This document shows positions 5,067 to 51,483 of a stretch of DNA of 64,000 nt, in pieces; the stretch's first letter is position 1, and every line of letters starts with the position of its first letter. The notes below the pieces were generated by a model, which was given only the letters and a program-made list of their open reading frames with translations, was not told where the DNA came from and did not search any database. A program made the position numbers and the translations under genes. The DNA comes from Parcubacteria group bacterium ADurb.Bin159 (GTDB lineage: Bacteria > Patescibacteriota > Patescibacteriia > UBA2591 > MWDC01): contig MWDC01000001.1 of the NCBI GenBank assembly GCA_002070355.1, positions 1,996-65,995 of the forward strand. The letters are read 5' to 3'.

Positions 5067-5083
5067 ATTTCAAATTTCAGCTT

Positions 5084-5167
5084 GGGCGAGTGATGAAATG
5101 GGGAGACATATAGCGTTCAGAACGCTATGACCGCAAGGTCGTGTGGGTTCGAATCCCACCTCGCCCA
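5084..5167 (+). tRNA. tRNA-Leu(CAG), class II (long variable arm); CCA not encoded
   Basis: Acceptor stem GGGCGAG/CTCGCCC. Anticodon arm TAGCG-TTCAGAA-CGCTA (anticodon CAG). Variable-arm hairpin GACCGCAAGGTC. T-arm GTGGG-TTCGAAT-CCCAC. Discriminator A. Confidence 0.85.
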
Positions 5168-6558
5168 TTAACATCAAAAAATTTTATGAATTTAAGAAGT
5201 TCTTTCTTCTTAATAAGCATTAATTTTTTGGTTTTTGCCTCAATAGTTAAACGAAGAAGAGGTTCAGTATTAGAAAAACGTATGTTAAACCACCAATCTT
5301 TAAATCGTATAGTTAATCCGTCAAAATATTCTTTTTCTGCTTTATTATATTTTTTTTCCAATTGATTAATTATTTCTTTTTTATTTTTTATTTTAAGATT
5401 AATTTCTGGTGTTTTATAATATTTTCTAAATTCTTGAATTAAACAAGAAAGGCTTTTTTTGTTTTGAGAAATAATATTTAATACAGAAATAAGCGTTAAT
5501 CCTCCGCATTCAGCATAAAACATATCTTTCCAATAAAAATGTCCGGATGTTTCCCCGCCTAAAATTGCTTTATTTTTTTTCATACATTCTTTCATAAAAG
5601 TGTGGCCTGTTTGACAGGGGCAAGGGAAACCGCCGAAAGCTGTTATTTTTTTTTCAACGATTTTTGAGGAGCTCGCTTTATTATAAACAATTTTTTCTTT
5701 AGATTTTTTAGAAAGTAAATATTTAGCTAAAAGAAGAAGTATAAAATCTGACGGGACAAATTTCCCTTTATTGTCAATAAAAATTGTTCTATCTCCATCG
5801 CCGTCAAAAGCTAAACCAAAATCAGCCTTTTCTTTATTCACTGCTAAACGAAGGTCTTTTGTATTTTGTGGTTCTAAGGGATTGGGCAAATGATTAGGAA
5901 AATGACCATCGGGTTTAGCATAAAGAGTTTTTAAGCGAATGGGCAACTTATTTGCCAAAGGAATAATAACTTTACCAGCTGTTCCGTTGCCAAAATCAAT
6001 AATAACCTTTAATGGTTTTATTGTTTTAATATCGGTTTTTGAAAGTATGTATTTAAGATAAGTAGGGATAATATTTTGTTTGGTAATTTTTCCTGTTGTT
6101 TTTTTATTTACAAATTTATGGTTGATAACCATTTTTTTTATGGTTTTCATGCCAAAATTATTGTTAATAAATCTATTTCCTCTAATTAGCATTTTTAATC
6201 CGTTATAATGAGGCGGATTATGGCTGGCCGTTACCATAGCTGCGGCGTCAAGAGATAAAAAATTCAAAGAGAAATAAAGGGCGTCTACTGGAGTTAAACC
6301 AATATCAATAACATTGGCTCCTTCATCTCTTATACCATTTGAGAAAGAAAGAAAAATATAAGGCGAGGAAAGACGGCAATCACGATTAACCGCAATTTTT
6401 AATTTTCTTTGAGATTTGTTTAGTTTTTTTGCCGTGAAAATAACCAGGGCTCGACCAATTTTGTAAGCTATTTCTTCATTGAAATCTTCAGGATAAATGC
6501 CCCTGATATCATAAGGACCAAAAATTGACGGATTCACTTTATTGGACATATTTGGCAA
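5125..6558 (-). CDS. phosphoglucomutase/phosphomannomutase family protein (alpha-D-phosphohexomutase)
   Basis: Active-site motif TASHNPPHYNGLK. Metal-binding loop DGDGDR. Sugar-binding GGETSGH. The last ~14 codons overlap tRNA-Leu in antisense. Confidence 0.8.
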   Translation of the reverse strand: MPNMSNKVNPSIFGPYDIRGIYPEDFNEEIAYKIGRALVIFTAKKLNKSQRKLKIAVNRDCRLSSPYIFLSFSNGIRDEGANVIDIGLTPVDALYFSLNFLSLDAAAMVTASHNPPHYNGLKMLIRGNRFINNNFGMKTIKKMVINHKFVNKKTTGKITKQNIIPTYLKYILSKTDIKTIKPLKVIIDFGNGTAGKVIIPLANKLPIRLKTLYAKPDGHFPNHLPNPLEPQNTKDLRLAVNKEKADFGLAFDGDGDRTIFIDNKGKFVPSDFILLLLAKYLLSKKSKEKIVYNKASSSKIVEKKITAFGGFPCPCQTGHTFMKECMKKNKAILGGETSGHFYWKDMFYAECGGLTLISVLNIISQNKKSLSCLIQEFRKYYKTPEINLKIKNKKEIINQLEKKYNKAEKEYFDGLTIRFKDWWFNIRFSNTEPLLRLTIEAKTKKLMLIKKKELLKFIKFFDVNGRGGIRTHTTLRS

Positions 6559-7356: not shown

Positions 7357-8925
7357 ATGGACCCGAAAATATTAAAACGAGAATTAAAGAGAAAAAAAAT
7401 ACTTAACGAAAAAGATATAGTTGATTTACAAAGAAAAATTGCTAAAAAATATAAAATTTTTCTTCCTAATAAAATAGATATTCTAACTGCCGCTAAAGAA
7501 TTAAACATTAAAACTAATTTCAAGAAAAAACCAATTCGCTCTCTTTCTGGTGTGGCTATTGTCGCTGTTTTAACTAAGAATTTTCCCTGCCCGGGAAAAT
7601 GCATTTATTGTCCAAATGAAAAAAATTTGCCTAAAAGTTATCTTTCCGGAGAACCAGCCGTGGAAAGGGCAAAAAAATTAAATTTTGACCCTTATCTACA
7701 AATTCAAGAGAGAATTAAAGCTTTAGAGAAAGAAGGCCATTCTACTGATAAAATAGAATTGATTATTATCGGCGGTACTTGGTCGGCTCTCCCCTCCTCT
7801 TATCAAAAAGAATTTATAAAACAATGTTTCAAGGGAGCAAATGAATGCGATAAAAAATCAAAAGCAGAAAAAAAATCAAATAAATCTTTATTAGAAGTAC
7901 AAAAAATTAATGAAAAGGCGAGACACAGAATTATTGGTTTAACATTAGAGACAAGACCGGATTATATTACTCTCAAAGAAATAGAAAAAATGCGTATTTA
8001 TGGCTGTACTCGTGTAGAATTGGGCGTTCAATCAATTGAAGATAGAATACTTAAAATTAATCATCGTGGTCATAATGTGGAAACCACTATCAAAGCAACA
8101 AAACTCTTAAAGGATGCGGGGTTTAAGATTTGTTATCATATTATGCCAGGCCTTTTAGGTTCAAACCCAAAATTAGATTTAAAACAATTCAAAACTTTAT
8201 TTGAAGATGAAAGATTTAGGCCGGATATGCTTAAAATTTATCCTTGTGTTATTACTAAGGGCTCCAAACTGTACACTCTTTTTTTAAATGGCCAATATCG
8301 TTCCTATACAGATAAAACACTAATAAAACTATTAGTGGAAATGAAAAAAAGTATTCCTCCTTATGTGAGATTACTTCGTCTAATTAGAGACATTCCCTCT
8401 AACTCTATTATCAGTGGAATAAAAATTTCTAATCTTAGAGAGGTTGTTCAAAAAAAAATGAATGAAAAAGGTTATAAATGCCAATGTATCCGCTGTCGAG
8501 AAATCAAAACATTACCCTTAAATTTTAAAAACATTAAATTAGTCAGAAGAGATTATGATGCTTCTTTGGGTAAAGAAGTTTTTCTTTCTTTTGAAGACCT
8601 AAAGCAAGATAAATTATTAGCCTTTTTGCGTTTGCGTTTGCCCCAAAATCCAGAATATCCTTCTTCACTATCAAAATCCCTTAATGGAGCAGCTTTAATT
8701 CGAGAAATTCACACTTATGGGGAATTAACCCCTTTAGGGAAAAAAATTGGAGCTATTCAGCATTATAGTTTAGGGAAAAAATTGATTAAAAAGGCAGAAG
8801 AAATTGCTCAGCAAGCTAATTATAAAAAAATAGCCGTTATTTCCGGCATTGGGGTAAGAGATTATTGGCGAAAAAATGGCTATCACTTATCTGAAACATA
8901 TATGATAAAAAAACTAAAATATTAA
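7357..8925 (+). CDS. Elp3-like radical SAM / GNAT acetyltransferase (tRNA modification family)
   Basis: 522 aa. Radical-SAM cysteine triad (CPGKCIYC). Central radical-SAM core and a C-terminal GNAT-like region. Length and order match Elp3 homologues. Confidence 0.7.
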   Translation: MDPKILKRELKRKKILNEKDIVDLQRKIAKKYKIFLPNKIDILTAAKELNIKTNFKKKPIRSLSGVAIVAVLTKNFPCPGKCIYCPNEKNLPKSYLSGEPAVERAKKLNFDPYLQIQERIKALEKEGHSTDKIELIIIGGTWSALPSSYQKEFIKQCFKGANECDKKSKAEKKSNKSLLEVQKINEKARHRIIGLTLETRPDYITLKEIEKMRIYGCTRVELGVQSIEDRILKINHRGHNVETTIKATKLLKDAGFKICYHIMPGLLGSNPKLDLKQFKTLFEDERFRPDMLKIYPCVITKGSKLYTLFLNGQYRSYTDKTLIKLLVEMKKSIPPYVRLLRLIRDIPSNSIISGIKISNLREVVQKKMNEKGYKCQCIRCREIKTLPLNFKNIKLVRRDYDASLGKEVFLSFEDLKQDKLLAFLRLRLPQNPEYPSSLSKSLNGAALIREIHTYGELTPLGKKIGAIQHYSLGKKLIKKAEEIAQQANYKKIAVISGIGVRDYWRKNGYHLSETYMIKKLKY

Positions 8926-8971
8926 ATCCAAAATTCTATATTTTAAATTCAAAATTCTTTTTAACCAAAAT

Positions 8972-9120
8972 TAATCAAAATCATGCCAAATTTGAAAAAT
9001 TGCCCGAAAATCCGCATCAACTTCCCAAAAGGGGACAGTCCCCTTTTTCCGACCTCTGCAAACCCGCATCAATAAAGGCTTATCTCCTCAAAAAATCAAA
9101 TTTGACACTTTTTCTACCAA
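8972..9120. repeat. dispersed intergenic repeat element, copy A (composite, contains palindrome GGGGACAGTCCCC at 9031-9043)
   Basis: Shares the string aaaatcatgccaaatttgaaaaat..cccgcatcaataaaggctt and the tail tcaaatttgacactttttctaccaa with copies at 9185-9271, 45157-45240, 57321-57412 and 59424-59507. Confidence 0.6.
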
Positions 9121-9184
9121 TTTTAAAATAATAAAAATAAATAATAAAAATAAATTAAATTTTATATTCTAAATTCCAAATTTT

Positions 9185-9271
9185 GATCAAAATCGTGCCA
9201 TTTTTGAAAAATCGCCCGCAAACCCGCATCAATAAAGGCTTCTCAGCGGTCGGTTTTTGGGGTCTAACCCC
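9185..9271. repeat. dispersed intergenic repeat element, copy B (palindrome GGGGTCTAACCCC at 9259-9271)
   Basis: aaaatcgtgccatttttgaaaaatcgcccgcaaacccgcatcaataaaggcttctcagcggtcggtttttggggtctaacccc is near-identical to copy E at 59424-59507. Confidence 0.65.
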
Positions 9272-9280
9272 AAAAAATAT

Positions 9281-10294
9281 TTATTTTATTGTTGGTGTTA
9301 AAAGCACATCTTTAAGATTTTTGAAATCTTCCAGAATAATGCCAATTCCTCTAATAACCGAAGTAAGAGGGTCATCAGCAATATGAACAGGCATATTTAT
9401 TTCTTCTTGAATTAATTTATCAAACCCAGGGATTAAAGCCAATCCTCCATTTAAACTAATTCCTCTTTTATAAATATCGGCTACTAACTCGGCAGGAGTG
9501 GCATCAATAGTATCTTTTATTGCCTCAACTATAGTTTTTAGAACATCAATTGTTGCTTTTCTTACATCTTCATCAGTTAGGTCAATCTCTTTTGGTAAAC
9601 TCGTAGAAAGATCTTTGCCTTTAATTTTCATTCTTTGGGGTCTTAAAGGCCAAGCTGAAATAAGTTTAATTTTTGTTTCTTCTGCTGTTTGCCATCCTAA
9701 TTTTATACTGAATTTATCTCGAACATAATTTATAATACAGTCATTAAGTGTTTCTCCTCCTAATTTTAATGATTTAGAAGAAACAATTCCATTAAGCGAA
9801 ATAACAGCAATTTCTACTAATCCTCCACCCATTTCCCCAATTAAATTACCAATTGGTTCAGAAACAGGAAGTTTATTGCCGATAGCCGCTGCCATAGGAC
9901 GTTCTACTAAGAACGTCTTTTTACTTCCCACCTGCGCTGATATATCTTCTAATGATTTTCTTTCCACTTCTGTTACATCTAAAGGAATGGCGGCAATAAT
10001 TTTGGGCCGTCCTCCCCTGATATTTATTTTTTCAAAAATAAGGCGAAGCATTTGTTCAGCCACTTCAAAATCGGAAATAATTCCGTGTTCCACTGGCCTA
10101 ACAACCCTAATATGTTGGGGGGTTTTCCCTAACATTCGTAAGGATTGTTCGCCAAAACAAATTACCTCTTGAGTTCTCATATTAAAGGCAATAATTGATG
10201 GCTCATTAACCACTAATCCCATCCCTCTAACATAAACTCTGATATTCGTTGTTCCTAAATCAAGACCAATTTCTTTAGAAAATAAATTTCTCAT
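9281..10294 (-). CDS. mreB: rod shape-determining protein MreB (actin homologue)
   Basis: N-terminal phosphate-1 motif (IGLDLGTTN) and actin-fold motifs throughout; 337 aa. Confidence 0.85.
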   Translation of the reverse strand: MRNLFSKEIGLDLGTTNIRVYVRGMGLVVNEPSIIAFNMRTQEVICFGEQSLRMLGKTPQHIRVVRPVEHGIISDFEVAEQMLRLIFEKINIRGGRPKIIAAIPLDVTEVERKSLEDISAQVGSKKTFLVERPMAAAIGNKLPVSEPIGNLIGEMGGGLVEIAVISLNGIVSSKSLKLGGETLNDCIINYVRDKFSIKLGWQTAEETKIKLISAWPLRPQRMKIKGKDLSTSLPKEIDLTDEDVRKATIDVLKTIVEAIKDTIDATPAELVADIYKRGISLNGGLALIPGFDKLIQEEINMPVHIADDPLTSVIRGIGIILEDFKNLKDVLLTPTIK

Positions 10295-10309: not shown

Positions 10310-11800
10310 TTATTTAATAATAAATATTTTTAATTTTTTAATCACCTCCTTAACTAAATTGAGATAATTTGAATTAGGCGCATAAAGAGTGCATAATGTT
10401 TCTCCTTTTTTGACCTTTTCTCCTATTGTTTTATCTAAATAAACTCCGGCTTGCGTTCTAAAAGGTGCGCCTAAAATACGGCACAATTCTACTAAATCTT
10501 TATTATTAATATCAATAATTTTACCTGTTTTTGTAGAAAGAAAATTACATTTATAATTAGATAAATTTATTTTATCAGAAGTAATATTCGGATCTCCGCC
10601 TTGGGCTTTAATAATTTCTCGTATTTTTAAAAGAGCTTTGCCGTTTTTTAGAGAATTAAGGGCTAATGCTCTCCCCTCCCCTTTTCTTGCCCGGCCAATA
10701 AGCTCTAAAAGTTCTCCTGATAATTCTACTGCCTTTTTTTCTAAATCCTTAGGACGATTCTCTTTCTGCTCCAGCACTCTTAAAATATCTCTTGCTTCAA
10801 GTACAGGCCCTATTCCTCGGCCAATTGGACCTTTCGCTCGATGAATTACTACTTTGGTTTTAATTTTGAATCTCTGGGCTAAATTTTCAAAAAGTTCTTT
10901 AATTTCTTCCGCTTTTTTGTAGGTAGTAATTTTTGTTGTTTTCCCCACTGGAATATCTAAAACAAGATATTTCACGCCCATCGCTACTTTTTTGGCCATA
11001 ATACTTACTACCATTTTTGAATAGGGCTCAATCCCTAAACGATAACACACTTTAATAATTCTATCATCAGCAGGAGCGATTTTTTCTCCCCCCCAAACCA
11101 AACAGGCATTATATTTTTTAACCAAATTATAAATTTCTTTAGCTTTAAAAGTAACTGGCGCTAAAACCTCAAAAGTGTCAGCTGTCCCAGCGGCTGAGGT
11201 AATTGCCCGAGATGATGTTTTGGGAATACAAATATTAAAACTTCCGATAATTCCCACGATAATTGGGGTAATGCGATTTCCGGGTAATCCTCCAATAGAA
11301 TGTTTATCAGCAACTTTACGGCCAAAATTAAATGTCGGGCCAGTTAAAGCCATTGCTTTGGTTAAATAATATATTTCTTTCTGAGAAAAATTTTTATGAG
11401 CAAAAGCGCTGGCAATAAAAAAAGCGATTTCAACTTCGTCCAATCTATATTCAACTATATCAGAAACAATAGAATATATTTCTTTATAGGTAAGACGTTC
11501 TCCTAATAATTTTTTTCTAATCGCCTTCAAAGAAACAGGGTGTCTAGCTATTTCTAATTCTATAAGCTCACCATTTTTAATCTTATAATGAGAAAAAACA
11601 TCTTGGAAAAAACCTATCTCTCCGGGTTTAACCAAAGAAGAAGTTAAATCAATTATTATATCAGTTGATTTATTTTTCCAATTTAAAACAAGCTCGTCTC
11701 CTGCTTTAAGGTCAAAACGATGGCCATCTACTTCATTGATTACAGCAATCCAAGAATTGCCTGTTTTAATATCTAATTGTTTTGCTTTTAAAAAAAACAT
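10310..11800 (-). CDS. AMP phosphorylase (thymidine phosphorylase/DeoA family with extra N-terminal domain)
   Basis: 496 aa with pyrimidine-nucleoside phosphorylase family motifs (glycosyltransferase family 3 core, SIGGLPG-like phosphate loop). Sits in an operon with RuBisCO and e2b2 isomerase. Confidence 0.7.
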   Translation of the reverse strand: MFFLKAKQLDIKTGNSWIAVINEVDGHRFDLKAGDELVLNWKNKSTDIIIDLTSSLVKPGEIGFFQDVFSHYKIKNGELIELEIARHPVSLKAIRKKLLGERLTYKEIYSIVSDIVEYRLDEVEIAFFIASAFAHKNFSQKEIYYLTKAMALTGPTFNFGRKVADKHSIGGLPGNRITPIIVGIIGSFNICIPKTSSRAITSAAGTADTFEVLAPVTFKAKEIYNLVKKYNACLVWGGEKIAPADDRIIKVCYRLGIEPYSKMVVSIMAKKVAMGVKYLVLDIPVGKTTKITTYKKAEEIKELFENLAQRFKIKTKVVIHRAKGPIGRGIGPVLEARDILRVLEQKENRPKDLEKKAVELSGELLELIGRARKGEGRALALNSLKNGKALLKIREIIKAQGGDPNITSDKINLSNYKCNFLSTKTGKIIDINNKDLVELCRILGAPFRTQAGVYLDKTIGEKVKKGETLCTLYAPNSNYLNLVKEVIKKLKIFIIK

Positions 11801-11831
11801 AAAAAATATATCAGATCTAAGATTTAGAATT

Positions 11832-13043
11832 TTATTTTTTGAAGTGTTCTAATGCTATGAATAGCTCGTGATGATTTTTAGCATATTTTTTAAGAGGTAT
11901 ATTTTGACAGGTTGCTTCTACTGCTTGATATACAGCTTTGGCTCCGGCTAAAGTTCCTTCCGGGTGGCCGTGAACACCTCCTCCAAAATTCATTATTATA
12001 TCTCTGCCTAAAATTTTCATTAATTTTGGCACTAATTCCGGATGTAAACCGCCAGAAGCAATAGGTAAAACAGGCTTTAGCCCAGCCCAAGGAGAAGTTA
12101 AAAAATTATTTATTTTTAAAACATCTTCCTCTCCTCCTTCCATTTTACCAATAATTGTGCCGGTATGCAACTGGTCAACTCCGGCTAAACGCAACAATTT
12201 AGCCAAAACCAGCATAGAAATGCCGTGTTTTTTGTTTCTAGTCATTACTGAATGCATTGCCCGATGAGCATGAATGATTAATCCCAAATTTTGTTTGCGT
12301 AAAGTTTGTAAAGCGGCAAATCCCGCGGTTATTACATCAACCATTATTGCTCTACCCCCCATTTTTTTAACCAATTTAGCCCGTTTTATCATTTCTTCTG
12401 TCTCTGCAGTGATATTAAAAACGCATATTTTAATTCGGCCTGTTTCTTTTTCGGCTCTTCTCTGCGCTTTTAGACAATATTCTACCCTTTTTTCAAAACG
12501 ATTAAAATTTTGGTTAGTTAAATTTTCGTCATCTTTTACCAAATCTACTCCACCTATAAAACAAAGATAAGTTAAATTAGCCTGTTCTTTAGGATTAAGT
12601 CCTAATTTTGGTTTCATAATTAAACCAATAAGAGGACGATTTTGGGTTACCTTGAAAATTTTTTTAATATTATCTTTGCCTATTTGCGGTCCGGGAAAAC
12701 TTTGAATATAAGAAGAAGGAAAATCAACATCTATAAGCCGTAAATTTTTAACCAACTTCATGCTGAAAATATTCCCCGCTGAATTAGAAAGAAATTGAGG
12801 GATGCTCCCCTTTTCAAATAAAGCCAGAGGATAAGCAATTTTTATTATTTTTGTTTTAGGATTAATTTCAAAAACTATAGCTTTTAATTTTTTTTGGATA
12901 TTTTGGCTTAAAGTATTAAGTTCCGTCCAAGTGCCAATAGACGATTCTGCAGCTATGGATTCTGCCGCTTGTTTTAAAGATACTTTGTTTGGTTCTAAAA
13001 AAAGAGTGCTAATTAAATACTTTTTAAGATCGGGTTTAAACAT
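11832..13043 (-). CDS. rbcL: ribulose-1,5-bisphosphate carboxylase large subunit, form II/III type
   Basis: RuBisCO signatures: GGVDLVKDDENLTNQ (cf. GGxDFxKDDE) and MKPKLGL (catalytic Lys region). The 403-aa length fits form III/II-III. Confidence 0.85.
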   Translation of the reverse strand: MFKPDLKKYLISTLFLEPNKVSLKQAAESIAAESSIGTWTELNTLSQNIQKKLKAIVFEINPKTKIIKIAYPLALFEKGSIPQFLSNSAGNIFSMKLVKNLRLIDVDFPSSYIQSFPGPQIGKDNIKKIFKVTQNRPLIGLIMKPKLGLNPKEQANLTYLCFIGGVDLVKDDENLTNQNFNRFEKRVEYCLKAQRRAEKETGRIKICVFNITAETEEMIKRAKLVKKMGGRAIMVDVITAGFAALQTLRKQNLGLIIHAHRAMHSVMTRNKKHGISMLVLAKLLRLAGVDQLHTGTIIGKMEGGEEDVLKINNFLTSPWAGLKPVLPIASGGLHPELVPKLMKILGRDIIMNFGGGVHGHPEGTLAGAKAVYQAVEATCQNIPLKKYAKNHHELFIALEHFKK

Positions 13044-13084
13044 AAATATGTTAAATGTTTAATATCAAAACCTTAAATTTTATT

Positions 13085-14017
13085 TCATATAAATGGGTAT
13101 AATTTTTTAGCGTATTTTTGCGCTTGTTCTGGTTTAATAATCCCTATTTCGCAAATTATACCCTTAATATAGGAAGCAGGGATTTTATCAAAAGCAAAAT
13201 TAATAATTTTTAATTTTTTTGGCGCTTTAGCCCATATTTCTTTTGCTGAACGTTTTTCTATTTTAATCCAAGATTTAGGATAAAATTTCAAAAGCGGCGC
13301 GGCAATATATAAAGGAACATTTTCTTCTTTGGCTGATGAACCAATACCAAAACTGCCAATTTTATTGATAACTGAGCCATCAGACAAAATAGCATCAGCT
13401 CCTAATATAATTTTATTCATTGTTAAACTTTTCCCAGAATAAGACGATATTAAAAAAGCGGCCGAAGAATCAGTAACCATAGTTACAGGTATTTTTGCTT
13501 TTAATAATTTTTTAGCGGTGATATGTCCCTGGAACAATGGTCTTGTTTCCGTATTAAAAACTTTGAAATTTTTGCCTGCTTTTTTGGCTTGAATTAATAT
13601 CTGCTCTACTAAGTAAGAATGACAATGAGTTAAAATATTTTCATTATTTTTTATCTCTGTTTTCCCTAAAGCAATAATGTTTAAAGAAATGTCCTCTATT
13701 AATATTAAAAAATCATTAGCTGCCTTTTTGAGATAATTTTTAGCCTGAATTACATTTTGCGGTTTTTCTTTTTTTATAGTTTCTAAAACAAACTTTAAAC
13801 CATTTTGCGCCATTGGTTCAGTAGGACGAGCTGAGGAAAGATATTTACTGGCAGATTTAATTTCTTCTTTCCATTTTAATAAATTATTAATTTTAATATT
13901 TAGCCCGTAATTTTTAAGAGCTATTACCGAATTTTTAGCCACAGCAGTAGCTCCCTGAATCTCAAGATTTTTAATTTTTCGATAAGTTTGTTTTAATTTA
14001 TTTTTTGGATTGTCCAT
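13085..14017 (-). CDS. ribose-1,5-bisphosphate isomerase (eIF-2B alpha/beta/delta-like, e2b2 family)
   Basis: 310 aa; eIF-2B/MtnA-family fold motifs (THCHS, ETRP, GADA). Located directly upstream of RuBisCO on the same strand. Confidence 0.65.
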   Translation of the reverse strand: MDNPKNKLKQTYRKIKNLEIQGATAVAKNSVIALKNYGLNIKINNLLKWKEEIKSASKYLSSARPTEPMAQNGLKFVLETIKKEKPQNVIQAKNYLKKAANDFLILIEDISLNIIALGKTEIKNNENILTHCHSYLVEQILIQAKKAGKNFKVFNTETRPLFQGHITAKKLLKAKIPVTMVTDSSAAFLISSYSGKSLTMNKIILGADAILSDGSVINKIGSFGIGSSAKEENVPLYIAAPLLKFYPKSWIKIEKRSAKEIWAKAPKKLKIINFAFDKIPASYIKGIICEIGIIKPEQAQKYAKKLYPFI

Positions 14018-14517: not shown

Positions 14518-14591
14518 TGGCTGCGGGGTCAGGATTCGAACCTGAATTAATGGCTCCAAGGGCCACTGTCCTACCATTAGACGACCCCGCA
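14518..14591 (-). tRNA. tRNA-Gln(UUG), CCA encoded
   Basis: Minus-strand reading TGCGGGG-T-C-GTCT..GGAC, anticodon arm GTGGC-CCUUGGA-GCCAT (anticodon UUG), T-arm TCAGG-TTCGAAT-CCTGA, acceptor CCCCGCA, discriminator G, then CCA. The U1:A72 pair and G73 are bacterial tRNA-Gln identity elements. Confidence 0.75.
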
Positions 14592-20633: not shown

Positions 20634-21512
20634 TTAATTGTTTATATCATCTAATGTTATATAACCACAAAGAAGTCCAATTCTCCACGCAAAACCGCTA
20701 ATAAAATTATATTTAAAATTTTTATTTCCGGTTACTAATTCATGTCCAATGCCTATAAAATAAGGTAAATGGTTTATTACGTTCTGAATAAATAAAATTT
20801 CTTTTTTGGCTTTATACTTTTTTAGAATTTTCGCATTCCAAAAACCTCTTAAAAAAAATTTTTTAAACACATCTAAAGAATTATCCACATATTGGTGCTC
20901 CACTTCAAATGGTTTAAAATATATACTATATCCTTTAATTTTTAATCTTACGTCTAACTCAGTATCATTCACCATATAAAAAGCAGGATTAGTATAACCA
21001 ATTTTCTTTAAAATATCTCTTTTAATGGCAAAATTGGCTGTATCAAGCATTCCTACTTTATTATCTTTTAATCTTTCCATAAAGTACCTTCTTCCTTCCT
21101 CAGCTAAATGCTCAGTCCAATAATTTATTTTAGTTTTAGCTGGTTTCTTTAACCCCTGAACAGCCACGGCTTTATTTTTTATAATAGGTTCTATCATTTC
21201 CTCAACCCAATTGTAAGGGACAATACAATCTGAATCAGTCATTAAAATTATTTCTCCCTTGGCATTTATTTCCCCTTTATATCTTGCCGCCGCCGCTCCT
21301 TTTTTGACTTCAAATAAATATTTTACTCTTTTGTCTTTTTTTTGAAATTCTTGTATTATTTCCTTGGTTTTATCAGTAGAGTTATTATCTACAAGAATAA
21401 CTTCATAATCTTGATAGGTTTGGTTTAAAACAGAATTAAGACATTCTTTTAATGTTTTTTCTCTATTATAAACCGGAATTATTATAGAAATTTTTGGATT
21501 TTTATTTTCCAT
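20634..21512 (-). CDS. glycosyltransferase family 2 (copy 1 of tandem duplicate)
   Basis: N-terminal GT-A motifs (ISIIIPVYN, DxD at VILVDNNSTD, MTDSDC); 292 aa. Confidence 0.75.
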   Translation of the reverse strand: MENKNPKISIIIPVYNREKTLKECLNSVLNQTYQDYEVILVDNNSTDKTKEIIQEFQKKDKRVKYLFEVKKGAAAARYKGEINAKGEIILMTDSDCIVPYNWVEEMIEPIIKNKAVAVQGLKKPAKTKINYWTEHLAEEGRRYFMERLKDNKVGMLDTANFAIKRDILKKIGYTNPAFYMVNDTELDVRLKIKGYSIYFKPFEVEHQYVDNSLDVFKKFFLRGFWNAKILKKYKAKKEILFIQNVINHLPYFIGIGHELVTGNKNFKYNFISGFAWRIGLLCGYITLDDINN

Positions 21513-21588: not shown

Positions 21589-22467
21589 TTAATTATTTAT
21601 ATCATCCAATGTTATATAACCGCAAAGAGATCCAATTCTCCACAGAAAACCGCTGATAAAATTATATTTAAAATTTTTGTTTCCGGTTACTAATTCACAT
21701 CCAATGCCTATAAAATAGTGTAAATGGTCTATTGCATTCGGAATAAATAAAATTTCTTTTTTGGCTTTATACTTTTTTAGAATTTTCGCATTCCAAAAAC
21801 CTCTTAAAAAAATTTTTTTAAACATATCTAAAGAATTATCTACATATTGATGCTTCACTTCAAATGGTTTAAAATATATACTATATCCTTTAATTTTTAA
21901 TCTTACGTCTAACTCAGTATCATTCACCATATAAAAAGCAGGATTAGTATAACCAATTTTCTTTAAAATATCTCTTTTAATGGCAAAATTGGCTGTATCA
22001 AGCATTCCTACTTTATTATCTTTTAATCTTTCCATAAAGTACCTTCTTCCTTCCTCAGCTAAATGCTCAGTCCAATAATTTATTTTAGTTTTAGCTGGTT
22101 TCTTTAACCCCTGAACAGCCACGGCTTTATTTTTTATAATAGGTTCTATCATTTCCTCAACCCAATTGTAAGGGACAATACAATCTGAATCAGTCATTAA
22201 AATTATTTCTCCCTTGGCATTTATTTCCCCTTTATATCTTGCCGCCGCCGCTCCTTTTTTGACTTCAAATAAATATTTTACTCTTTTGTCTTTTTTTTGA
22301 AATTCTTGTATTATTTCCTTGGTTTTATCAGTAGAGTTATTATCTACAAGAATAACTTCATAATCTTGATAGGTTTGGTTTAAAACAGAATTAAGACATT
22401 CTTTTAATGTTTTTTCTCTATTATAAACCGGAATTATTATAGAAATTTTTGGATTTTTATTTTCCAT
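21589..22467 (-). CDS. glycosyltransferase family 2 (copy 2 of tandem duplicate)
   Basis: First ~200 aa identical to copy 1; about 10 substitutions in the C-terminal 90 aa. Confidence 0.75.
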   Translation of the reverse strand: MENKNPKISIIIPVYNREKTLKECLNSVLNQTYQDYEVILVDNNSTDKTKEIIQEFQKKDKRVKYLFEVKKGAAAARYKGEINAKGEIILMTDSDCIVPYNWVEEMIEPIIKNKAVAVQGLKKPAKTKINYWTEHLAEEGRRYFMERLKDNKVGMLDTANFAIKRDILKKIGYTNPAFYMVNDTELDVRLKIKGYSIYFKPFEVKHQYVDNSLDMFKKIFLRGFWNAKILKKYKAKKEILFIPNAIDHLHYFIGIGCELVTGNKNFKYNFISGFLWRIGSLCGYITLDDINN

Positions 22468-29107: not shown

Positions 29108-32100
29108 CTATTCTGAAACACATACTGTTGGACGCTCTATGCAATCAGATCCCGGATAACATTTTTTACAACAACAATCATCACCTAATTTTGGTCCACA
29201 TGTAGCAATTCCTCCACAGGTATTCCAACCGCTTGGACAATTTCCAAGTGGTAATTCACTTTTAGGTATACAGCTACCCTGATAACAAACTCTAGAACCA
29301 GAACCGTCGCCACATACGGTACAATTGTTAGCATTATTACAACTGCTAGATCCGGGTCCAAGCCCATCGCAAATTTTGCAAACACCGCAAGAATCGCCCT
29401 TTTGTTTAAATGCATCTGCCGGACACGAAGCAGAGCTACCACTACAATATTCTTCTTTGTCGCAAGCACCAGCTGCCGGTCGACAAGGAGCATCAACCTC
29501 ACTCCCACCTGAGCAAACTTTATTGGCTGCTACATTAGCGACATCATCACCTTTATCATTAGTTGGACCAGTCGGACAACTACTAGAAGTGCCACTACAT
29601 TTGTAAACATCTCTTTTTTTCTGGCATTGCCCATTACACCCATTCCAACTAGAATAACCACAAATAGTACCCTCTGATTTAAAACGACATCCATCACAAC
29701 AAGCACTTTCTTCTGAACATTGGCAAGCAAACCACACTCCGCCTCTGCAATATTCTTTATCTCCGTCGTCATCTACATCAACAACTGTATTTGTAGGTTG
29801 GCAACCGTTATGAGCACAATATGTTGGAGAGGAGCAACAAGCTCGGTCAGTAGAATCAGAAGAACAAGCGCCACTATTGCAAGTTCTAGTTTTATAATAT
29901 TCTCCTGAATCATCGCCACAACACATATTATACCAACAAGCACTATCTACATTTCCATATGTATATCCCCAACCATAATTGCTACTCTGACAAGAATCTT
30001 TATTGAAATCACAATCATTATTATAAGGATCTCCGGAACAACCGTTCTTATTATCGCCGCAACCCCTGCATTGACCATATGAATCACAAAAATATCCTGT
30101 AGTATTACCTATGTTACATTTAGTAAACTTTGGTTTAAATACATCTGTCGGGCACGAAGCAGAGCTACCACTACAATATTCTTCTTGGTCACAATCGCCA
30201 GCTGCCGGTCGACAAAGGGTAGTGTCTGATCTAAAACGGCAACCATCACAACAATCATTTTCTACTGAACATTGGCAAGCATACCATTTTCCACCGCTAC
30301 AAAATTCTTTATCTCCATCGCCATCTACATCATCAACTTTACCTGTAGGTTGGCAACCGTTATGAGCACAATATGTTGGAGAGGAGCAACAAGCTCGGTC
30401 AGTAGAATCAGAAGAACAAGCACTACCATAAGGACTGCTATCGCATACTCTGGTTTTATAAAATTCTCCTGAATCATCGCCGCAACACATATTATACCAA
30501 CAAGCGCTATCTACATTTCCATATGTACATCCCCAACCATAATTATTACTATACCTACAAGAATCTTCATTGAAATCGCAATCATTATTATAAGGATTTC
30601 CGGGACAACCGTTCCCATTATTACCGCAACCCTTGCATTGACCATATGAATCACAGAAATATCCTAAAAGGCAATTATGTTGTCCTGAGGTATAATAATC
30701 GCAAATGCCGGTATTATTTTGGCAATAACCTGTTAAACAACCACTAGTGCCACATTGATCATTAGGATCCATATCGGAATTATATGAACTTGATACTTTC
30801 TTACATTCTCCATTATAACAATATTCACAAACGCCATTGCCACAGGGCTCAAAATCATCTTTTATAATATGACATCCATCACAACAATCATTTTTTACTG
30901 AACATTGGCAAGCATACCATTTTCCGTTACTACAATATTCTTTATCTCCGTCGCCATCTACATCGATAATTGTACCTGTAGATTGACAACCGTTATAAGC
31001 ACAATATGCTGTAGAGGAGCAACAAGCCCTATCACCAGGATTAGAAACACAAGCGCCACTATTGCAAATTCTAGTTTTGGGGAATTCTCCTGAATCATCA
31101 CCGCAACATTTACCTGACCAACAATCGCCAGTTGCATTTCCGAAAGTATTTCCCCACTGATAACCCCTTGTCCCATAAAGAGAAGAACAAGTAGGGGGAT
31201 CAAAATCGCAATCGTAACTGAAATTTGGGGAGCAACCATTATCACTGTTATTACTGCCGCAACCCTTACATTCACCATTTTGACAAAATTCATTACTATG
31301 GCATGCTTTTTCACAATACTTACAATGGTTTTTATCAGTATTTAAATTAATTTCACATCCATTAGAAGCATTTTGATCGCAATTCCCATATCCCGGATTA
31401 CAATATATTCCCGAACAATCGTAATGACAAGTGCCATTAGCTACCTGTATTTTTGTGTCGCAAACCTCACCACAATTTAAATTTATTTTTCCATTCCCAC
31501 AAGCCAAAGTCCAATTCGATTCTTGACAAACATAATTTTTATTTTCCCAATTAACACAAGAATCTTCATTAAGACAACAAGTATCTTTATCACTGCATTT
31601 TTGCCTTTCCGGATTAAGACATTGAGAAGCCAAGCAACCAAAAAATTCTGCTTCTGAATGTTTGTATTCTACATTAAAAGCAGTAGTAGGGCACATACAG
31701 TTAAAATTTTCTTCACAGAAACAAATTGGTTCAGGTGTTATTTCAAACGGCCGTGGTTCGCAAACTCCATTCCATTGGCATAAAAAATGTTTTTTACATT
31801 CAAATTCTGTTTCATAATTATAGCAATTTGATTTCCAATTTTCAGGCTGGGCATATTCAAAATGAGCGTATAATTTATATCCTCCCCCTACTTCTTTAGT
31901 TAAGGGGTTGATTGTCGCTCGATAAAGATAAATAAAAGAATCATCAGGTACACTATATGTTTTGTTTTTTAGATTGAAACAAGTTCCATCACATTGGGGA
32001 TTATCTTCCGGACAACTAGCGCATTGTTTTGCTCCAAAAACGTTTAAAGGATCAACAGGCAAAGATTTTCCCAAAGCCACGCCTAATGTTTCTTGCCAAG

Positions 32101-38400: not shown

Positions 38401-38844
38401 CAAGCAGCCTGAGCAAGTTCCCGAGATATCGCATTCTTTTCCTATAATTTCTTCGTTAGTTAAAATATCTTTTTCAATGGCTCTAATAATAAACCAAGAA
38501 ATAGAATAAGCCAAAACCACAATGATTAAACCAATCAAACCATTAATCATTAACTTTTTGGCTTTATCAATTTTTTCCTGATTGCCGCCGGAACTCATCC
38601 ATTGAAAGCCGCCGATGATGATAATAATTGTGGCTATTAAACCTAAAAACCCTAAAACCCATTTTATAATATTACCAATAACAGTTACTAAAGGCGTAGT
38701 GGGTAATTGTGAAGTGGTTAAAACTTCTTCCATTCCTTCGGTTAATTCTGCAGCAAAAACCGGACTAGTTATTCCTAAAACTGTTCCGATTATTATAAGG
38801 ATTAAAAAAATATTAAGGGTTTTGTTTTTGTTAAAAAACAACAT
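32452..38844 (-). CDS. giant surface protein (2130 aa): pilin-like (VirB2/TrbC-type) N-terminal module plus Cys-rich, bacterial Ig-like and beta-sandwich domains
   Basis: N-terminus has signal peptide, ELTEGMEEVLTTSQ, two TM helices (LVTVIGNIIKWVLGFLGLIATIIIIIGGF / LMINGLIGLIIVVLAYSISWFI), identical over ~125 aa to the 38930-41701 protein. Downstream are multiple Ig-like repeats and Cys-rich modules. Confidence 0.5.
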   Translation of the reverse strand: MLFFNKNKTLNIFLILIIIGTVLGITSPVFAAELTEGMEEVLTTSQLPTTPLVTVIGNIIKWVLGFLGLIATIIIIIGGFQWMSSGGNQEKIDKAKKLMINGLIGLIIVVLAYSISWFIIRAIEKDILTNEEIIGKECDISGTCSGCLRCLNGIWQFDNSCLNCEDVPPPGPSPFYIKNIAPLKGVTVPKNSIVSAIFNKTVNTESVNNTNFIISKVIDENETIVSGSLEQLAEGKKVKFTPEAFCPDNATLHCFDGDSSYKVVISSNVTSENGQNLNCNNGNCSWTFKTNNMVDTQNPEIKSVVFEPSQGKYVPSGNIKIKTTIYDDAGINLVIFKIDLNSDNTWDIEDIQNGTPAAGEYNYEYNWDTSLLEISSQHKIKIEAYDFADNLDEKEKIAFIRAGHCFNGVIDEDEGGVDCGGADCGLCQGAYCDMDENTEGCQADNNICASNVCDETTCICQGLSPCNYDGTKDENEECDGDDLGGKNCVDFDDNYVGGNLLCNSDCTFNFSDCLTEENDPFIGGDCNEDKDCFPENTSPENMIGKTCFENKCVVFPKPTGLAIPASTLTQIKLKWNYNDPSNLATAFEIYERTSKQLNFNLLTTCSLIDNTCSPNPSNNFIFIKQGGDYIFENNGTFIKGDSYTYKVRAKRGTETVYSGFSQETSGVIKGLGACQTNDDCPEKTPCCRIDSNKCVSGWDYCEGNCLKEGHCQIPEKEYVLTSFKTIEGTAMGACLSKVEPNQGKINDSVNLFGQSFGSSAGKINFEDIKSVIQESEGSSWGDKKIESVVPFGLSAGQGKVWVSPLGNNPSNKLPFKINIDIGKPGQNCKLENSSVCAAGADTCQGSFVCLSNNSQEDCRCCCNNDNQCGKLHCIKNIAPCDSPSRGLCCDCTKDSQCGATLGCGFLDENKCCWAKPQIESIKTCSTEDGKVGMNTSIEINFDQLMNYGSLTTDNIKVSRQADACGEGEGIYKDKEKRCYLNGRISLGNEGDKTKVVFYPSNCLLIDGQIYEVEIISSANGKGIISDKGVSFENSNAIPCTWNNDLKCYSVNFQVSTDKTKTCKVAQINVYPRGPVIIKGLNKTLSFAALALDSDGKPVCVDDFTWEATDNTVASVSSPPYGLSTTATSKYYGETFIKASTSEKSCIASPEKDRTCAYLKVSPTGLPQVIENKNCDVCDLKGQSPSPWPDSSDNCLNSRIGVRFNHKMEETTLDSSNVIIEKCNQSKLDDCKNKWENVSWDINNRYIETDDEETLLLIKINLDPSTIYQVILRSGPNGIRDAIFGWPLDGNKNNKKDGSPDDDYVWIFKTGDKQCSLNKVCLTPRKGMIYYPDEPKEISYKTEVYSSNCNYLSADDYSDWVWSLEKKDSWLTPENIAAFKERTPGESLSTAKVVSKGLGEVYVKVEKTEGGQSDRAPLIVATHPVVETFSPADYSQNVCPNTIISATFDQAMETNSLNKETIKLYKGTMASNGGGTLSERESFPFTKQDYKIATVPIIQWDEIIWQEISPKLSSVTKNNKTTIYIKPNESQWGLSLNTFYKVIILGGPTGVKSKYELAMSPGKVWQFKTAEDPCALSKINISVIDGSLSDADYIKVESSKNILFQKPNLSLSLQATAYSEDDQEIEGTENYNWSYTWSFTNAGVISLPDDKDEDGSTQKIMSQNQNGFTEVIAKAEVNNNKEVTVSDYASVENYLCEMPWSFEDTETNFELKYCRGNIGKVLLFNSNQWQRSFQSHSNVSINPIESYTGQNSLLIHQDANEPYPGQCRNDICSGIKNGSWPLSFPYANKCVWKGTEKICDFADDPNCGSCQVSESKDLVWPYTNRTMWARAVYDTTPFNLIPGQDYIFSFYGKGHLAGDISLTLCYNLGWCGQSSSLDYCQKAGRCSQECQYLNKDLETRISHSTDSCCKCRFVQWPYQTSSYPVISLGIIPKGNYQDWALFTYKFKYTEGMTQTLDSQGNLRNEIGLSIGYNNTGENGSDFYIDETMFRLDEYKESVLPGLRRFSPNPSQDSNLRKEWIFSNLENEDIIGLRVYENPDYLTPEEWYKTTVKNIPIQETEGYTSLKIDGYPAIRSGRTVYVGALNVINPGKENQQIESLIYLLSYSDNAKPETLDIYEQLIKNWRFNTNKE

Positions 38845-38929
38845 ATAAAAATGTAAAAACAGAAAATTAAAATGTAAAACAATAGATTAAAATTTTAAAT
38901 TCTACATTTCAATTCTCATTATTCCGCTA

Positions 38930-42208: not shown

Positions 42209-42268
42209 AATATATTAAATATTAAAATAAAAAGTCAAAAGTTAAAATTAAAATTTTAAATTCTAAAT

Positions 42269-42487
42269 TTACTTTATCATTCCCATTTTTTTCATATATT
42301 CTCGCTGTTCTTTTCTTCGAAGCCGTACCAAAGCGGATTGCCGGCGAAGGTCGCGGCTTTTTGGTTTAGTATAAAACATCCGTTCTTTGTATTGATTAAT
42401 AAGACCGCTTTGTCGGCTTATTTGAGAAAAACGACGTAACATTTCTCCCACAGATTCTCTAGGTTTTTTTTCTACTTTTATAGGCAT
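42269..42487 (-). CDS. rpsU: 30S ribosomal protein S21
   Basis: 72 aa, very basic, with S21 motifs (VGEMLRRF...QSALVRLRRKEQRE). Confidence 0.8.
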   Translation of the reverse strand: MPIKVEKKPRESVGEMLRRFSQISRQSGLINQYKERMFYTKPKSRDLRRQSALVRLRRKEQREYMKKMGMIK

Positions 42488-42632: not shown

Positions 42633-43030
42633 TTTCGGGGTTGGCTTATAAGCCGAATTCTGTTCTTCCCTTAAAAGAGAAGGGGCAATCATCTATCTAG
42701 GCCATTGATTGCTCAATGGCTCGAGCGAGCACTTGCTCTTGCACTAGATGGGGTTTACCACCTTCTTTAATCGCTTAAAGAAGGACCTCTTTTACAGAGG
42801 ACTTTTCACCTTTTGCCAGCTCTTTCTTGTTTAGAAAGAGCTAACTAGTATTGTCTCTGTGGCACTTTCCGTATCCAAAAGATTACTCTTTTGAATCCTT
42901 GCCGTTAGCAAGGCATCACGACACTCGACTTTACAGCCGAGAGAGTGTTCGGACTTTCCTCCCCTTTCTCAATCTTATTCTATAAAGAATATTAATTGGA
43001 AAAGGGCGATTGCCAAGCCAACCCCGGAAA
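42633..43030 (-). ncRNA. rnpB: RNase P RNA, bacterial type A
   Basis: Read on the minus strand: P1 pairing CCGGGGUUGGCUU...AAGCCAACCCCG; P4 5' strand GGGGAGGAAAGUCCGAAC; AGUGCCACAGAGACAAUAC; GGUAAACCCCAUCUAGUGCAAGAGCAAG; P4 3' strand ACAGAAUUCGGCUUA. No ORF, and GC is higher than the flanks. Confidence 0.85.
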
Positions 43031-45156: not shown

Positions 45157-45240
45157 AGGGTCAGACCCCAAAAATTGATGGCTCAAAAGCCTTTATTGAT
45201 GCGGGTTTTCAGGCGATTTTTTAAATTTGGCACGATTTTG
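45157..45240. repeat. dispersed intergenic repeat element, copy C (inverted orientation; palindrome GGGTCAGACCCC at 45158-45169)
   Basis: The reverse complement reads caaaatcgtgccaaatttaaaaaatcgcctgaaaacccgcatcaataaaggctt...ggggtctgaccc. Located 8 nt upstream of the recJ start codon. Confidence 0.6.
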
Positions 45241-45248
45241 CTTAATTT

Positions 45249-47968: not shown

Positions 47969-48201
47969 AAATACTAAAAATTTAATTCCTTTTTAATTCC
48001 TTTTATTTTACTCCTTTTTTACAAAAAAACAAGGGCTATACAGCCCCAACAAAAAATCCAAATTCTCCCTACCTTGTCTGCTCTACTTACCGGCAAGCAG
48101 GCAACAGACAAGAAATAAGCATGAATTTATTCAAAATTAAAAATTTATTCGAAATTTTCTTCGAAGCTCTTACTAAGAATGGAATTCTAAATTTTTATAT
48201 T

Positions 48202-51462: not shown

Positions 51463-51483
51463 TTTCCAATAGCCGACTAATCC

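Follow-up and report, generated by a model that had tools for sequence, protein, structure and literature searches.

A modular, dispersed, noncoding repeat family occupies the chromosome of Parcubacteria group bacterium ADurb.Bin159, a member of the candidate phyla radiation (CPR; Patescibacteria). We analyzed 64 kb of this genome (contig MWDC01000001.1, positions 1,996 to 65,995; here called the window) together with short metagenome contigs. Six copies of the family (A1, A2, B, C, D, and E) lie in the window. The units recombine and invert at a short core, at least one copy (C) is an insertion relative to the closest available relative, and the core is identical to a motif that elsewhere is strongly associated with iterons and initiator genes. 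[quoted passage not shown]

The exact 22-mer AAACCCGCATCAATAAAGGCTT, which represents the core, starts at positions 9060, 9220, 45187 (minus strand), and 59456, four occurrences compared to none in 100 shuffles. A second segment, the head (AAAATCGTGCCATTTTTGAAAAATCGCC), is found three times in the window at up to three mismatches where zero were expected, with a fourth, weaker copy at 8977. The palindrome pattern GGGGN5CCCC occurs four times in the window compared to 0.36 expected, and all four occurrences are inside elements. Repeat finding independently recovered copies B and E as a pair (9119-9272 and 59355-59508, 154 nt, 81% identical, AT-rich leader included), the direct repeat 9028-9120 and 57321-57413 (93 nt, 86% identical), and the inverted copy C as two inverted-repeat pairs. 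GC content is 36 to 48% in the elements, 6 to 15% in the adjoining intergenic DNA, and 32% in the window. A short open reading frame (ORF) in the core was considered and rejected: the AFIDAGL and PQTRINKG frames lack start codons, have stops directly upstream, and vary at nonsynonymous positions.

These results bear out much of an earlier sequence-only reading of the window. It had listed five copies, all of which were present where it had placed them when the regions were read and the motifs located, and it had correctly described the 13-bp palindromes, the variant tail common to two copies (here 9028-9120 and 57321-57413), the GC enrichment, the lack of coding capacity, and the contribution of the last seven codons and stop (22 nt) of ORF 59486-60712 by one copy (E). 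It was right that a repeat family is present, but its length of ~90 bp did not stand, since B and E share 154 nt and A2, a leader, and B form a ~250-bp composite that recurs as a block. The modular structure, the inversion of the core in place, and the link to replication origins were not part of it.

Contigs that share the core (24 low-GC metagenome contigs and one contig of a Patescibacteria metagenome-assembled genome [MAG]) contain ~45 distinct copies of the family, and their comparison with the window resolved the modules. A unit consists of a gene-proximal 13-bp palindrome, GGGGWC-N-GWCCCC, a CCGACC linker, an invariant core of 22 to 24 bp centered on ATNAATNAA, and one of several tails. 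The palindromes GGGGACAGTCCCC and GGGGTCTGACCCC are 13 bp long, or up to 23 bp counting their A/T arms, and a paired substitution, A..T to T..A, separates the two palindrome forms and leaves the dyad symmetry intact. Type 1 units run from an AT-rich leader through head, core, and linker (ctcagcGGTCGG plus T5) to the palindrome GGGGTCTGACCCC. Type 2 units begin with the palindrome GGGGACAGTCCCC, followed by T5 and the CCGACC linker, the core, and a tail that carries TTGACAC (tail 2a), the inverted repeat GCCGTAAATAACGGC (2b), or TTAGGGCTGTGGGCCCTAA (2c). Type 3 units have the outer flanks of type 1 with the core segment inverted. The copies in the window are as follows.

8975-9043, plus strand: copy A1, a truncated type 1 unit as aligned with other type 1 copies; head 8977-9003, degenerate core ~9006-9020, ending in the palindrome 9031-9043 that A1 and A2 have in common.
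9031-9120, plus strand: copy A2, type 2a; palindrome GGGGACAGTCCCC 9031-9043, T5 and CCGACC linker, core 9060-9081, tail to 9120 with TTGACAC at 9102-9108.
9102-9129, plus strand: promoter-like site TTGACA-16-TAAAAT, sigma-70-like with 11 of 12 matches, from the A2 tail toward the AT-rich leader and copy B.
9121-9186, plus strand: AT-rich leader or spacer of 66 nt with 6% GC, separating the two direct cores of the composite.
9187-9271, plus strand: copy B, type 1; head 9189-9215, core 9220-9241, linker GGTCGG and T5, palindrome GGGGTCTAACCCC 9259-9271, with 9 nt between the copy and the stop codon of mreB, a convergent gene.
45157-45241, minus strand: copy C, type 1, taking up the space between serS and recJ; head 45213-45239, core 45187-45208, palindrome (one mismatch) 45157-45169, then 7 nt and the recJ ATG.
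57321-57413, plus strand: copy D, type 2a, antisense to the genes on either side; palindrome 57324-57336, degenerate core 57353-57374, TTGACAC 57395-57401.
57414-57475, plus strand: module X, following copy D; hairpin 57448-57470, terminator-like on the minus strand just past a glycosylase gene.
59355-59507, plus strand: copy E, an AT-rich leader (59355-59423) and a type 1 unit; head 59425-59451, core 59456-59477, palindrome 59495-59507, overlapping the end of ORF 59486-60712 by 22 nt.

The core changes orientation within conserved surroundings. Type 3 units were found in contigs L071, L074, and L075, where the core segment is flipped between inverted repeats of 11 to 13 bp (AAAAATCGCC and GGCGATTTTT); in L071 and L075 the core is inverted within otherwise identical flanks. 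Types 1 and 2 likewise hold the core in opposite orientations relative to their common palindrome-N5-CCGACC flank. Units of types 2a and 1 often join in a composite of ~240 to 260 bp, represented in the window by 9031-9271, in which two direct cores surround a spacer of >90% AT and a near-consensus promoter-like site. This composite is 80 to 90% identical across unrelated contexts. An AT-rich intergenic motif, …TTCTAAATT…TATATTTTAAATTC…, which partly overlaps the type 1 leader, was also seen at 8913-8961, 38884-38920, 42209-42301, 48172-48220, 57721-57757, and 59382-59422; this motif possibly represents a general setting for promoters or terminators in the ADurb.Bin159 genome.

The insertion of copy C is indicated by comparison with the closest relative available, contig L181, whose SerS is 72% identical and which has the same greA-lysS-serS-recJ-rnhA order. 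In L181, serS and recJ overlap by 10 nt, and no family member was found across its 15 kb. The junction in the window is filled by the 85-nt copy C, the SerS C terminus is three residues shorter, and the recJ ATG is new. Therefore, we conclude from this one relative that copy C was inserted. In strain contig L160, mreB and copy B are identical to those of the window, and the DNA past the leader is different. Where contig L078 has the full composite, L086 has a collapsed form (palindrome-core-palindrome), apparently through a deletion between the direct cores. Contigs of several independent assemblies end inside the core or the palindrome (L158/159 and L162-L164), as expected of a high-copy-number repeat.

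The occurrence of the core outside the CPR was assessed by scanning one genome per species for exact matches to a 19-mer. Besides a Patescibacteria contig, the scan returned noncoding copies in Lentisphaerota (Candidatus Spyradenecus) and matches in Clostridia, Nitrosospira, Limnobaculum, and Verrucomicrobiae, and in several of these, identity ran 2 to 8 nt past the query. About 35 matches in Bryobacterales and ~12 scattered ones lie in coding sequence (AFIDAG motif) and were set aside as unrelated; those in Bryobacterales (L001, L002, L004, L009, and ~30 more loci) are ~35 copies of an insertion sequence (IS) with the 19-mer in frame (…AFIDAGW…), a coding coincidence. With the two variable positions freed (AACCCGCATNAATNAAGGC), the pattern was found at 55 viral-contig loci of 28 to 66% GC. 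Most of these carry element-specific short repeats on both sides of the core, often inverted (for example, GGAGTAAC, CTAGGAAC, GGTTAGAC, GTTGCCG, and GTGGCAC). At least three copies of an 8-mer within ±130 nt were present in 51% of the core-centered windows and 4.8% of random windows from the same loci, and at least four copies were present in 37% and 0.5%, respectively. Core-bearing loci of mobile genetic elements (MGEs) hold 3 to 6 copies of an 8-mer and are ~10% richer in AT at ±20 to 100 nt.

Among the 93 nearest-neighbor ORFs of these loci, the commonest Pfam families were those of replication initiators and primase-helicases: HTH_56/DUF927 (Cch-like), DUF5906/Pox_D5, RepA_N, Prim-Pol, VapE, Rep3, and Phage_rep_org_N. 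The motif is often found 46 to 92 nt past the helicase stop codon; the origins of Staphylococcus aureus pathogenicity islands (SaPI/Cch2) and of elements of the staphylococcal cassette chromosome mec (SCCmec) type sit just 3' of helicase genes (PMC7581432). The layouts of individual elements were as follows.

IncFIA-type plasmid (pEcWSU1_A, NC_016515): repE pointing away from, in order, its operator, four iterons, the core, an AT-rich stretch, and two DnaA boxes.
Bacteroides plasmid (8.6 kb, CP103111): rep pointing away from three iterons and then the core.
Advenella pWTk445: AT-rich stretch, core (opposite orientation), and iterons, leading into repA.
Leptotrichia plasmid: iterons flanking the core on both sides.
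Roseburia phage Shimadzu: core (one mismatch to the pattern) within the Rep coding sequence, excluded from the noncoding statistics.
Escherichia coli integrative element 1: core just upstream of a replisome-organizer gene.
E. coli integrative element 2: island with recombinase and transposase genes and no annotated replication gene.
Nitrosospira: core by a P4-like primase-helicase.

The IncFIA-type plasmid matches the published ori2/oriS layout (PMC13028717), and its core lies between the iterons and the unwinding region. In all, the core was found in at least seven phyla (Pseudomonadota, Bacillota, Bacteroidota, Fusobacteriota, Lentisphaerota, Verrucomicrobiota, and Patescibacteria), with 20 to 22 positions identical between CPR and MGE copies; the MGE copies lie in iteron clusters by initiator genes of plasmids, phages, satellites, and integrative elements. 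Some weak similarity extends to the flanks. In viral contig L124, beside a D5-like helicase gene, the iteron flank (tgTGCCAtttttcaaaaaa...GTGGCAC) is similar to the type 1 head (cgTGCCAtttttgaaaaa), and the phage origins of L102 and L119 have two direct cores 85 to 115 nt apart, as in the composite. The CPR units themselves contain iteron-like repeats, namely, AAAATCG twice, an inverted AAAAACCGACC, and one TGCCA half-site, amounting to one to three weak repeats per unit. The motif is absent from the origin descriptions in PMC13028717 and PMC7581432. Literature searches with exact strings, which do not reach sequences given only in figures, returned only unrelated primers, and keyword searches returned nothing on CPR repeats or on the core motif. 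The core motif in iteron-type origins is apparently undescribed.

Two chromosomal occurrences outside the CPR were also recorded. Two Ca. Spyradenecus MAGs contain a ~220-nt intergenic repeat whose core CCGCAAACCCGCATCAATAAAGGCTT is flanked by ATTGTTACAAAA and TTTTGTAACAAT, with many copies at contig ends (L003, L005, L008, L010, L011, L023 at 5380-5600, L025, L044, L046, and L050). Here, a core-containing unit was amplified in a chromosome for a second time, independently of the CPR family. In a chromosome of Bianqueaceae (Clostridia), the core is flanked on one side by an aldose-epimerase gene and on the other by a purine riboswitch (75 bits) ahead of xpt (L028, 5400-5501, minus strand), a chromosomal, non-MGE context.

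The copies are positioned closely with respect to genes. Their neighbors are housekeeping genes, encoding PBP1, RecG, DnaK, TopA, LepA, NrdD, GroEL, MreB, SerS, and RecJ. In the census of 45 copies, ~14 of 21 scorable cases have the palindrome of a type 2 or 3 unit beginning at -1 to +4 nt relative to a codirectional gene's stop codon. The type 1 palindrome stands 7 to 31 nt ahead of a codirectional start codon in six cases (including recJ and an FtsB-like gene in L048) and within ~50 nt of the stop codon of a convergent gene in five cases, one of them overlapping. With a predicted 5-bp stem, a 3-nt loop, and T5-6, the type 2 palindrome has the form of an intrinsic terminator and would act as that of the gene ending 1 to 4 nt upstream. 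The 2a tail, judged by its sequence, could serve as the source of a promoter. The type 1 and type 3 palindromes are followed by an A-run and do not have the intrinsic-terminator form. The sequence-only reading had considered the palindromes as dimeric recognition sites, for example, for a restriction or defense enzyme; this idea received no support, as they are confined to the elements, mostly lie 1 to 4 nt past stop codons, and resemble terminator hairpins. Protein binding as such is plausible, with the 22-bp core, which recurs among origin iterons, a better candidate for the site than the palindromes.

Tail 2a is often followed by module X (in the window at 57414-57475, in L066 at 2800-2860, and in L068, L075, and L083). 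This module has the sequence aagagaRatttNctaaaaaRg…cagtt…, then a hairpin, and then a T-rich tail. Its stem covaries between copies (TGCCTG/CAGGCA, TGCCTGT/ACAGGCA, and CTTGCCT/AGGCAAG), and module X could be a small leader or attenuator RNA.

In the mechanism that we propose, the core would be a landing site for a putative conserved, probably host-encoded, architectural or replisome-associated factor. A host factor is more likely than an element-encoded one because the same motif serves origins with unrelated initiators. We infer that the core acts at the DNA level and not as RNA. The units would have been amplified from origin-derived modules and spread by trans-mobilization or by recombination and gene conversion; once in place, the type 2 palindrome would terminate the upstream gene and the 2a tail would supply a promoter. 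A wider proposal, possible but on the doubtful side, is that AAACCCGCAT-N-AAT-N-AAGGCTT is an unrecognized, initiator-independent element of iteron origins, modules of which escaped from MGEs and were amplified in at least two chromosomal lineages. The initiators using it would include Rep_3, RepA_N, and RPA-type proteins, DnaD-like organizers, and DUF927, D5, and VapE helicase-primases, and its breadth across phyla points to recognition by a universally conserved host component. The lineages in which origin-core modules would have escaped are ADurb.Bin159 and Ca. Spyradenecus, and the amplified modules may be dispersed loading or architectural sites or decoys for incoming replicons.

Several observations weigh against the interpretation of the repeats as mobile, origin-derived units with terminator and promoter functions. 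At the serS/recJ junction, comparison with the empty L181 site revealed no target-site duplication, and no repeat flanks any of eight distinct composite insertions, a test that is weakened by the AT-rich flanks. Among near-identical strains from many samples, neither copy C nor copy D was polymorphic for presence or absence, which gives no sign of recent movement. No transposase, integrase, initiator, or primase-helicase is evident among the 45 ORFs of the window, a Pfam scan of the family's neighbors detected no transposase or initiator, and no gene for a REP-associated tyrosine transposase (RAYT) was seen in the window or among the neighbors, where no systematic Y1_Tnp scan was made. Unlike the MGE loci, the CPR copies do not adjoin an initiator (Rep or primase-helicase) gene, and no DnaA box (TTATCCACA, up to one mismatch) was found within or beside any copy. 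Because all non-CPR examples were recovered by motif search, the consensus, frequency, and specificity of the core are biased, and its putative homology between CPR and MGEs depends on 20 to 22 identical bases and weak flank similarity. The possibility that the core always sits in the loop of a hairpin formed by its immediate flanks was rejected (mean complementary run of 1.95 versus 1.82 in mismatched flank pairs). Wider, 70-nt windows had more stable folds than shuffles as single-stranded DNA (z of -1.6 and -1.8, compared to -0.7 for controls), a reflection of the inverted iterons. Lastly, the type 1 palindrome is not a canonical terminator because T5 precedes it and A5 follows it on both strands, and terminator or promoter roles cannot hold for all copies alike because D and A/B are antisense to genes or between convergent genes. 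A search of glycosylase homologs for a second empty site gave no usable relative, as these are too conserved to choose one and lack synteny.

The repeats could alternatively be classical MITEs, deletion derivatives of an IS mobilized in trans via their palindromic ends, with the likeness of the core to origins being incidental. The copies are small and noncoding and occur in many contexts, copy C is inserted relative to L181, and the two ends of the composite can be read as imperfect inverted repeats (GGGGACAGTCCCCTTTTTCCGACCTCTGC matches the other end in reverse complement, GGGGTCAGACCCCAAAAACCGACCGCTGAG, at ~20 of 28 positions). However, single units have only one palindromic end, the modules recombine freely with the core in both orientations against the same flank, and the Patescibacteria-specific modules are absent from viral contigs, where only GC-rich chance matches were found. 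Given also that there is neither a target-site duplication nor a transposase in the window or beside any copy, we regard a MITE origin in this strict sense as unlikely. The broader MITE- or REP-like assignment of the sequence-only reading is supported by the many unrelated contexts, the contig breaks in the core, and the serS/recJ site that is empty in the closest relative, but the target-site duplications it had suggested looking for, a transposase or RAYT, and a GTAG/CGTC signature were not found. That the copies are small RNA genes, as had also been suggested, or mobile 5'-leader cassettes is quite improbable. Here the 2a promoter would transcribe the leader and type 1 unit up to the hairpin, giving a ~150-nt RNA or a 5' untranslated region acting on the downstream gene. 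Downstream of the promoter-like site at 9102-9129 there is indeed a hairpin with a T-rich tail (9254-9285), the type 1 palindrome stands 7 to 31 nt before a codirectional start in six cases, and the stems of module X covary. In contrast, Rfam searches of the window and eight other loci, both at the gathering threshold and at an E value of ≤10, gave nothing at the motif, with only RNase P, tRNAs, and the purine riboswitch matching elsewhere. RNAalifold, applied to 16 type 1 and 15 type 2a copies on both strands, retained only the 5-bp terminal hairpin with at most one double change, so the covariance check proposed with the small RNA idea yielded nothing beyond that hairpin. About half of the type 1 copies point at a convergent gene's 3' end, the core flips within the same flanks, and the downstream genes are functionally unrelated.

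It is very unlikely that the copies are operators of one global regulator of a housekeeping or stress regulon, with the similarity of their flanks reflecting promoter or terminator context. In type 2a the core precedes the -35 hexamer by ~20 nt, and copies lie beside dnaK, groEL, lepA, topA, and nrdD, both of which would suit such a regulator. An operator would not need 90 to 260 nt of flanks that are 80 to 100% similar, and it would not explain why some copies lie between convergent genes or over 3' ends, why contigs break at the repeat, why the serS/recJ site is empty in L181, or why the same core is found in the replication origins of unrelated phyla. Functional origins, or decoys that titrate an initiator in incA/incC-type control or defense, seem the most improbable of the alternatives. 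The composite mirrors the L102 and L119 phage origins with their two direct cores, its spacer (9121-9186, 6% GC) has the composition of an AT-rich unwinding region, and its head resembles the L124 iterons. The copies nevertheless have no nearby initiator gene, no DnaA boxes, and only the one to three weak iteron-like repeats per unit, no GC-skew switch was found at any copy, and no matching phage or plasmid was found. A blastn search of copy B against plasmids and phages gave nothing relevant.

Known motifs do not account for the core or head. Measured against the E. coli-type integration host factor (IHF) site WATCAANNNNTTR, the core has cATCAAtaaaGGC and the TTR part fails, and one of the two positions that vary among MGE copies is the C of ATCAA. 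A sigma-54 promoter in the head (TGGCACG-N4-TTGC) is off by one in spacing and occurs in copy C only. The Tn3 inverted repeat shares only GGGGTCTGAC. A sigma-70 promoter, a sigma-32 -10 element, dif/Xer cores, and a T3/T7-type promoter did not fit on reading the sequence, nor did complementarity to 16S rRNA or tmRNA.

CPR/Patescibacteria genomes are ~1 Mb in size, and repetitive or selfish DNA is thought to be very scarce in them. A dense modular family at housekeeping genes that remodels gene ends (as with the new recJ start and the new C terminus of ORF 59486-60712) and carries terminator- and promoter-like signals changes this picture, and it explains the site-specific fragmentation of such genomes in metagenome assemblies. 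The same 22-bp motif lies between iterons and the unwinding region with unrelated initiators in seven phyla. If functional, it would point to a common host-level step of origin firing, so far undescribed, and would provide a practical signature for origins in uncharacterized plasmids, phages, and satellites.

The window has other features. Its SerS is 100% identical to that of ADurb.Bin159. The window contains the AMP phosphorylase, RuBisCO, and isomerase cluster typical of the CPR, a nucleotide-salvage cluster at 10310-14017 (minus strand) whose products are, by Pfam matches on the identical contig L162, an AMP/thymidine-phosphorylase-like protein, a form III-like RuBisCO, and an isomerase of the IF-2B family. 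Its RNA genes are a class A RNase P RNA (42633-43025, minus strand, 191 bits), tRNA-Leu(CAG) (5083-5168, plus strand), and tRNA-Gln(TTG) (14518-14591, minus strand). A 292-amino-acid (aa) glycosyltransferase gene is tandemly duplicated (20634-21512 and 21589-22467), and two giant neighboring ORFs (2,130 and 923 aa) are 96% identical over their N-terminal 300 nt (38465-38764 and 41325-41624). Internal repeats of ~630 to 700 nt in a 1,086-aa ORF and ~550 to 730 nt in a 1,092-aa ORF were detected (regions 48230-51624 and 29399-31157), as were arrays with 12-nt and 18-nt periods in minus-strand ORFs (62068-62242 and 63492-63596), which probably encode low-complexity repeat proteins. On an unrelated contig, a glycosylase homolog adjoins a gene for a 240-aa RVT_1 reverse transcriptase preceded by a small ORF (L182, 2896-3618; L183, 465-1187), a locus that may be retron-like.

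Among known systems, the pneumococcal BOX element (boxA-boxB-boxC) is a modular intergenic repeat built from a few conserved boxes in variable combinations. The CPR repeats have no sequence relationship to BOX, which lacks an origin-type core and whose modules do not invert. Correia elements of Neisseria (CREE/NEMIS) and bacterial MITEs are noncoding intergenic sequences of 100 to 260 bp with inverted-repeat ends and an internal protein-binding site, and they can provide promoters or terminators. The CPR repeats are similar to these in size, dispersal, noncoding nature, and potential supply of promoters and terminators, and perhaps also in inverted-repeat ends and, with the core, a putative internal protein-binding site. 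They differ in lacking a TA or other target duplication, in the single palindromic end of single units, and in their shuffled modules with the core in both orientations, and no parent IS was found. Enterobacterial BIMEs or REP mosaics (RIP/RIB with a central IHF site) are likewise extragenic and multicopy, combine GC-rich palindromes and conserved linkers around a nonpalindromic motif of the protein-binding type, and are concentrated at gene 3' ends with terminator- or stabilizer-like hairpins. A REP is defined as an imperfect palindrome of 20 to 40 nt with a GTAG or CGTC tag at one end (PMC3733652), whereas the CPR palindrome is only 13 bp long and has no such tag. In further contrast to BIMEs, the CPR units carry promoter-like tails, no RAYT was seen (no dedicated Y1_Tnp scan), and the central motif misses the E. 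coli IHF consensus and is common to the origins of other phyla. The CPR copies are unlike iteron origins in being multicopy beside housekeeping genes, with vestigial iterons and neither an adjacent initiator nor DnaA boxes. What they share with the origins of F/IncFIA (ori2, or oriS), of Rep_3 and RepA_N plasmids, and of SaPI/SCCmec-type elements 3' of superfamily 3 (SF3) helicase genes is the same 20- to 22-bp core, together with short direct and inverted flanking repeats, an AT-rich stretch, and, as in some phages, two direct cores.

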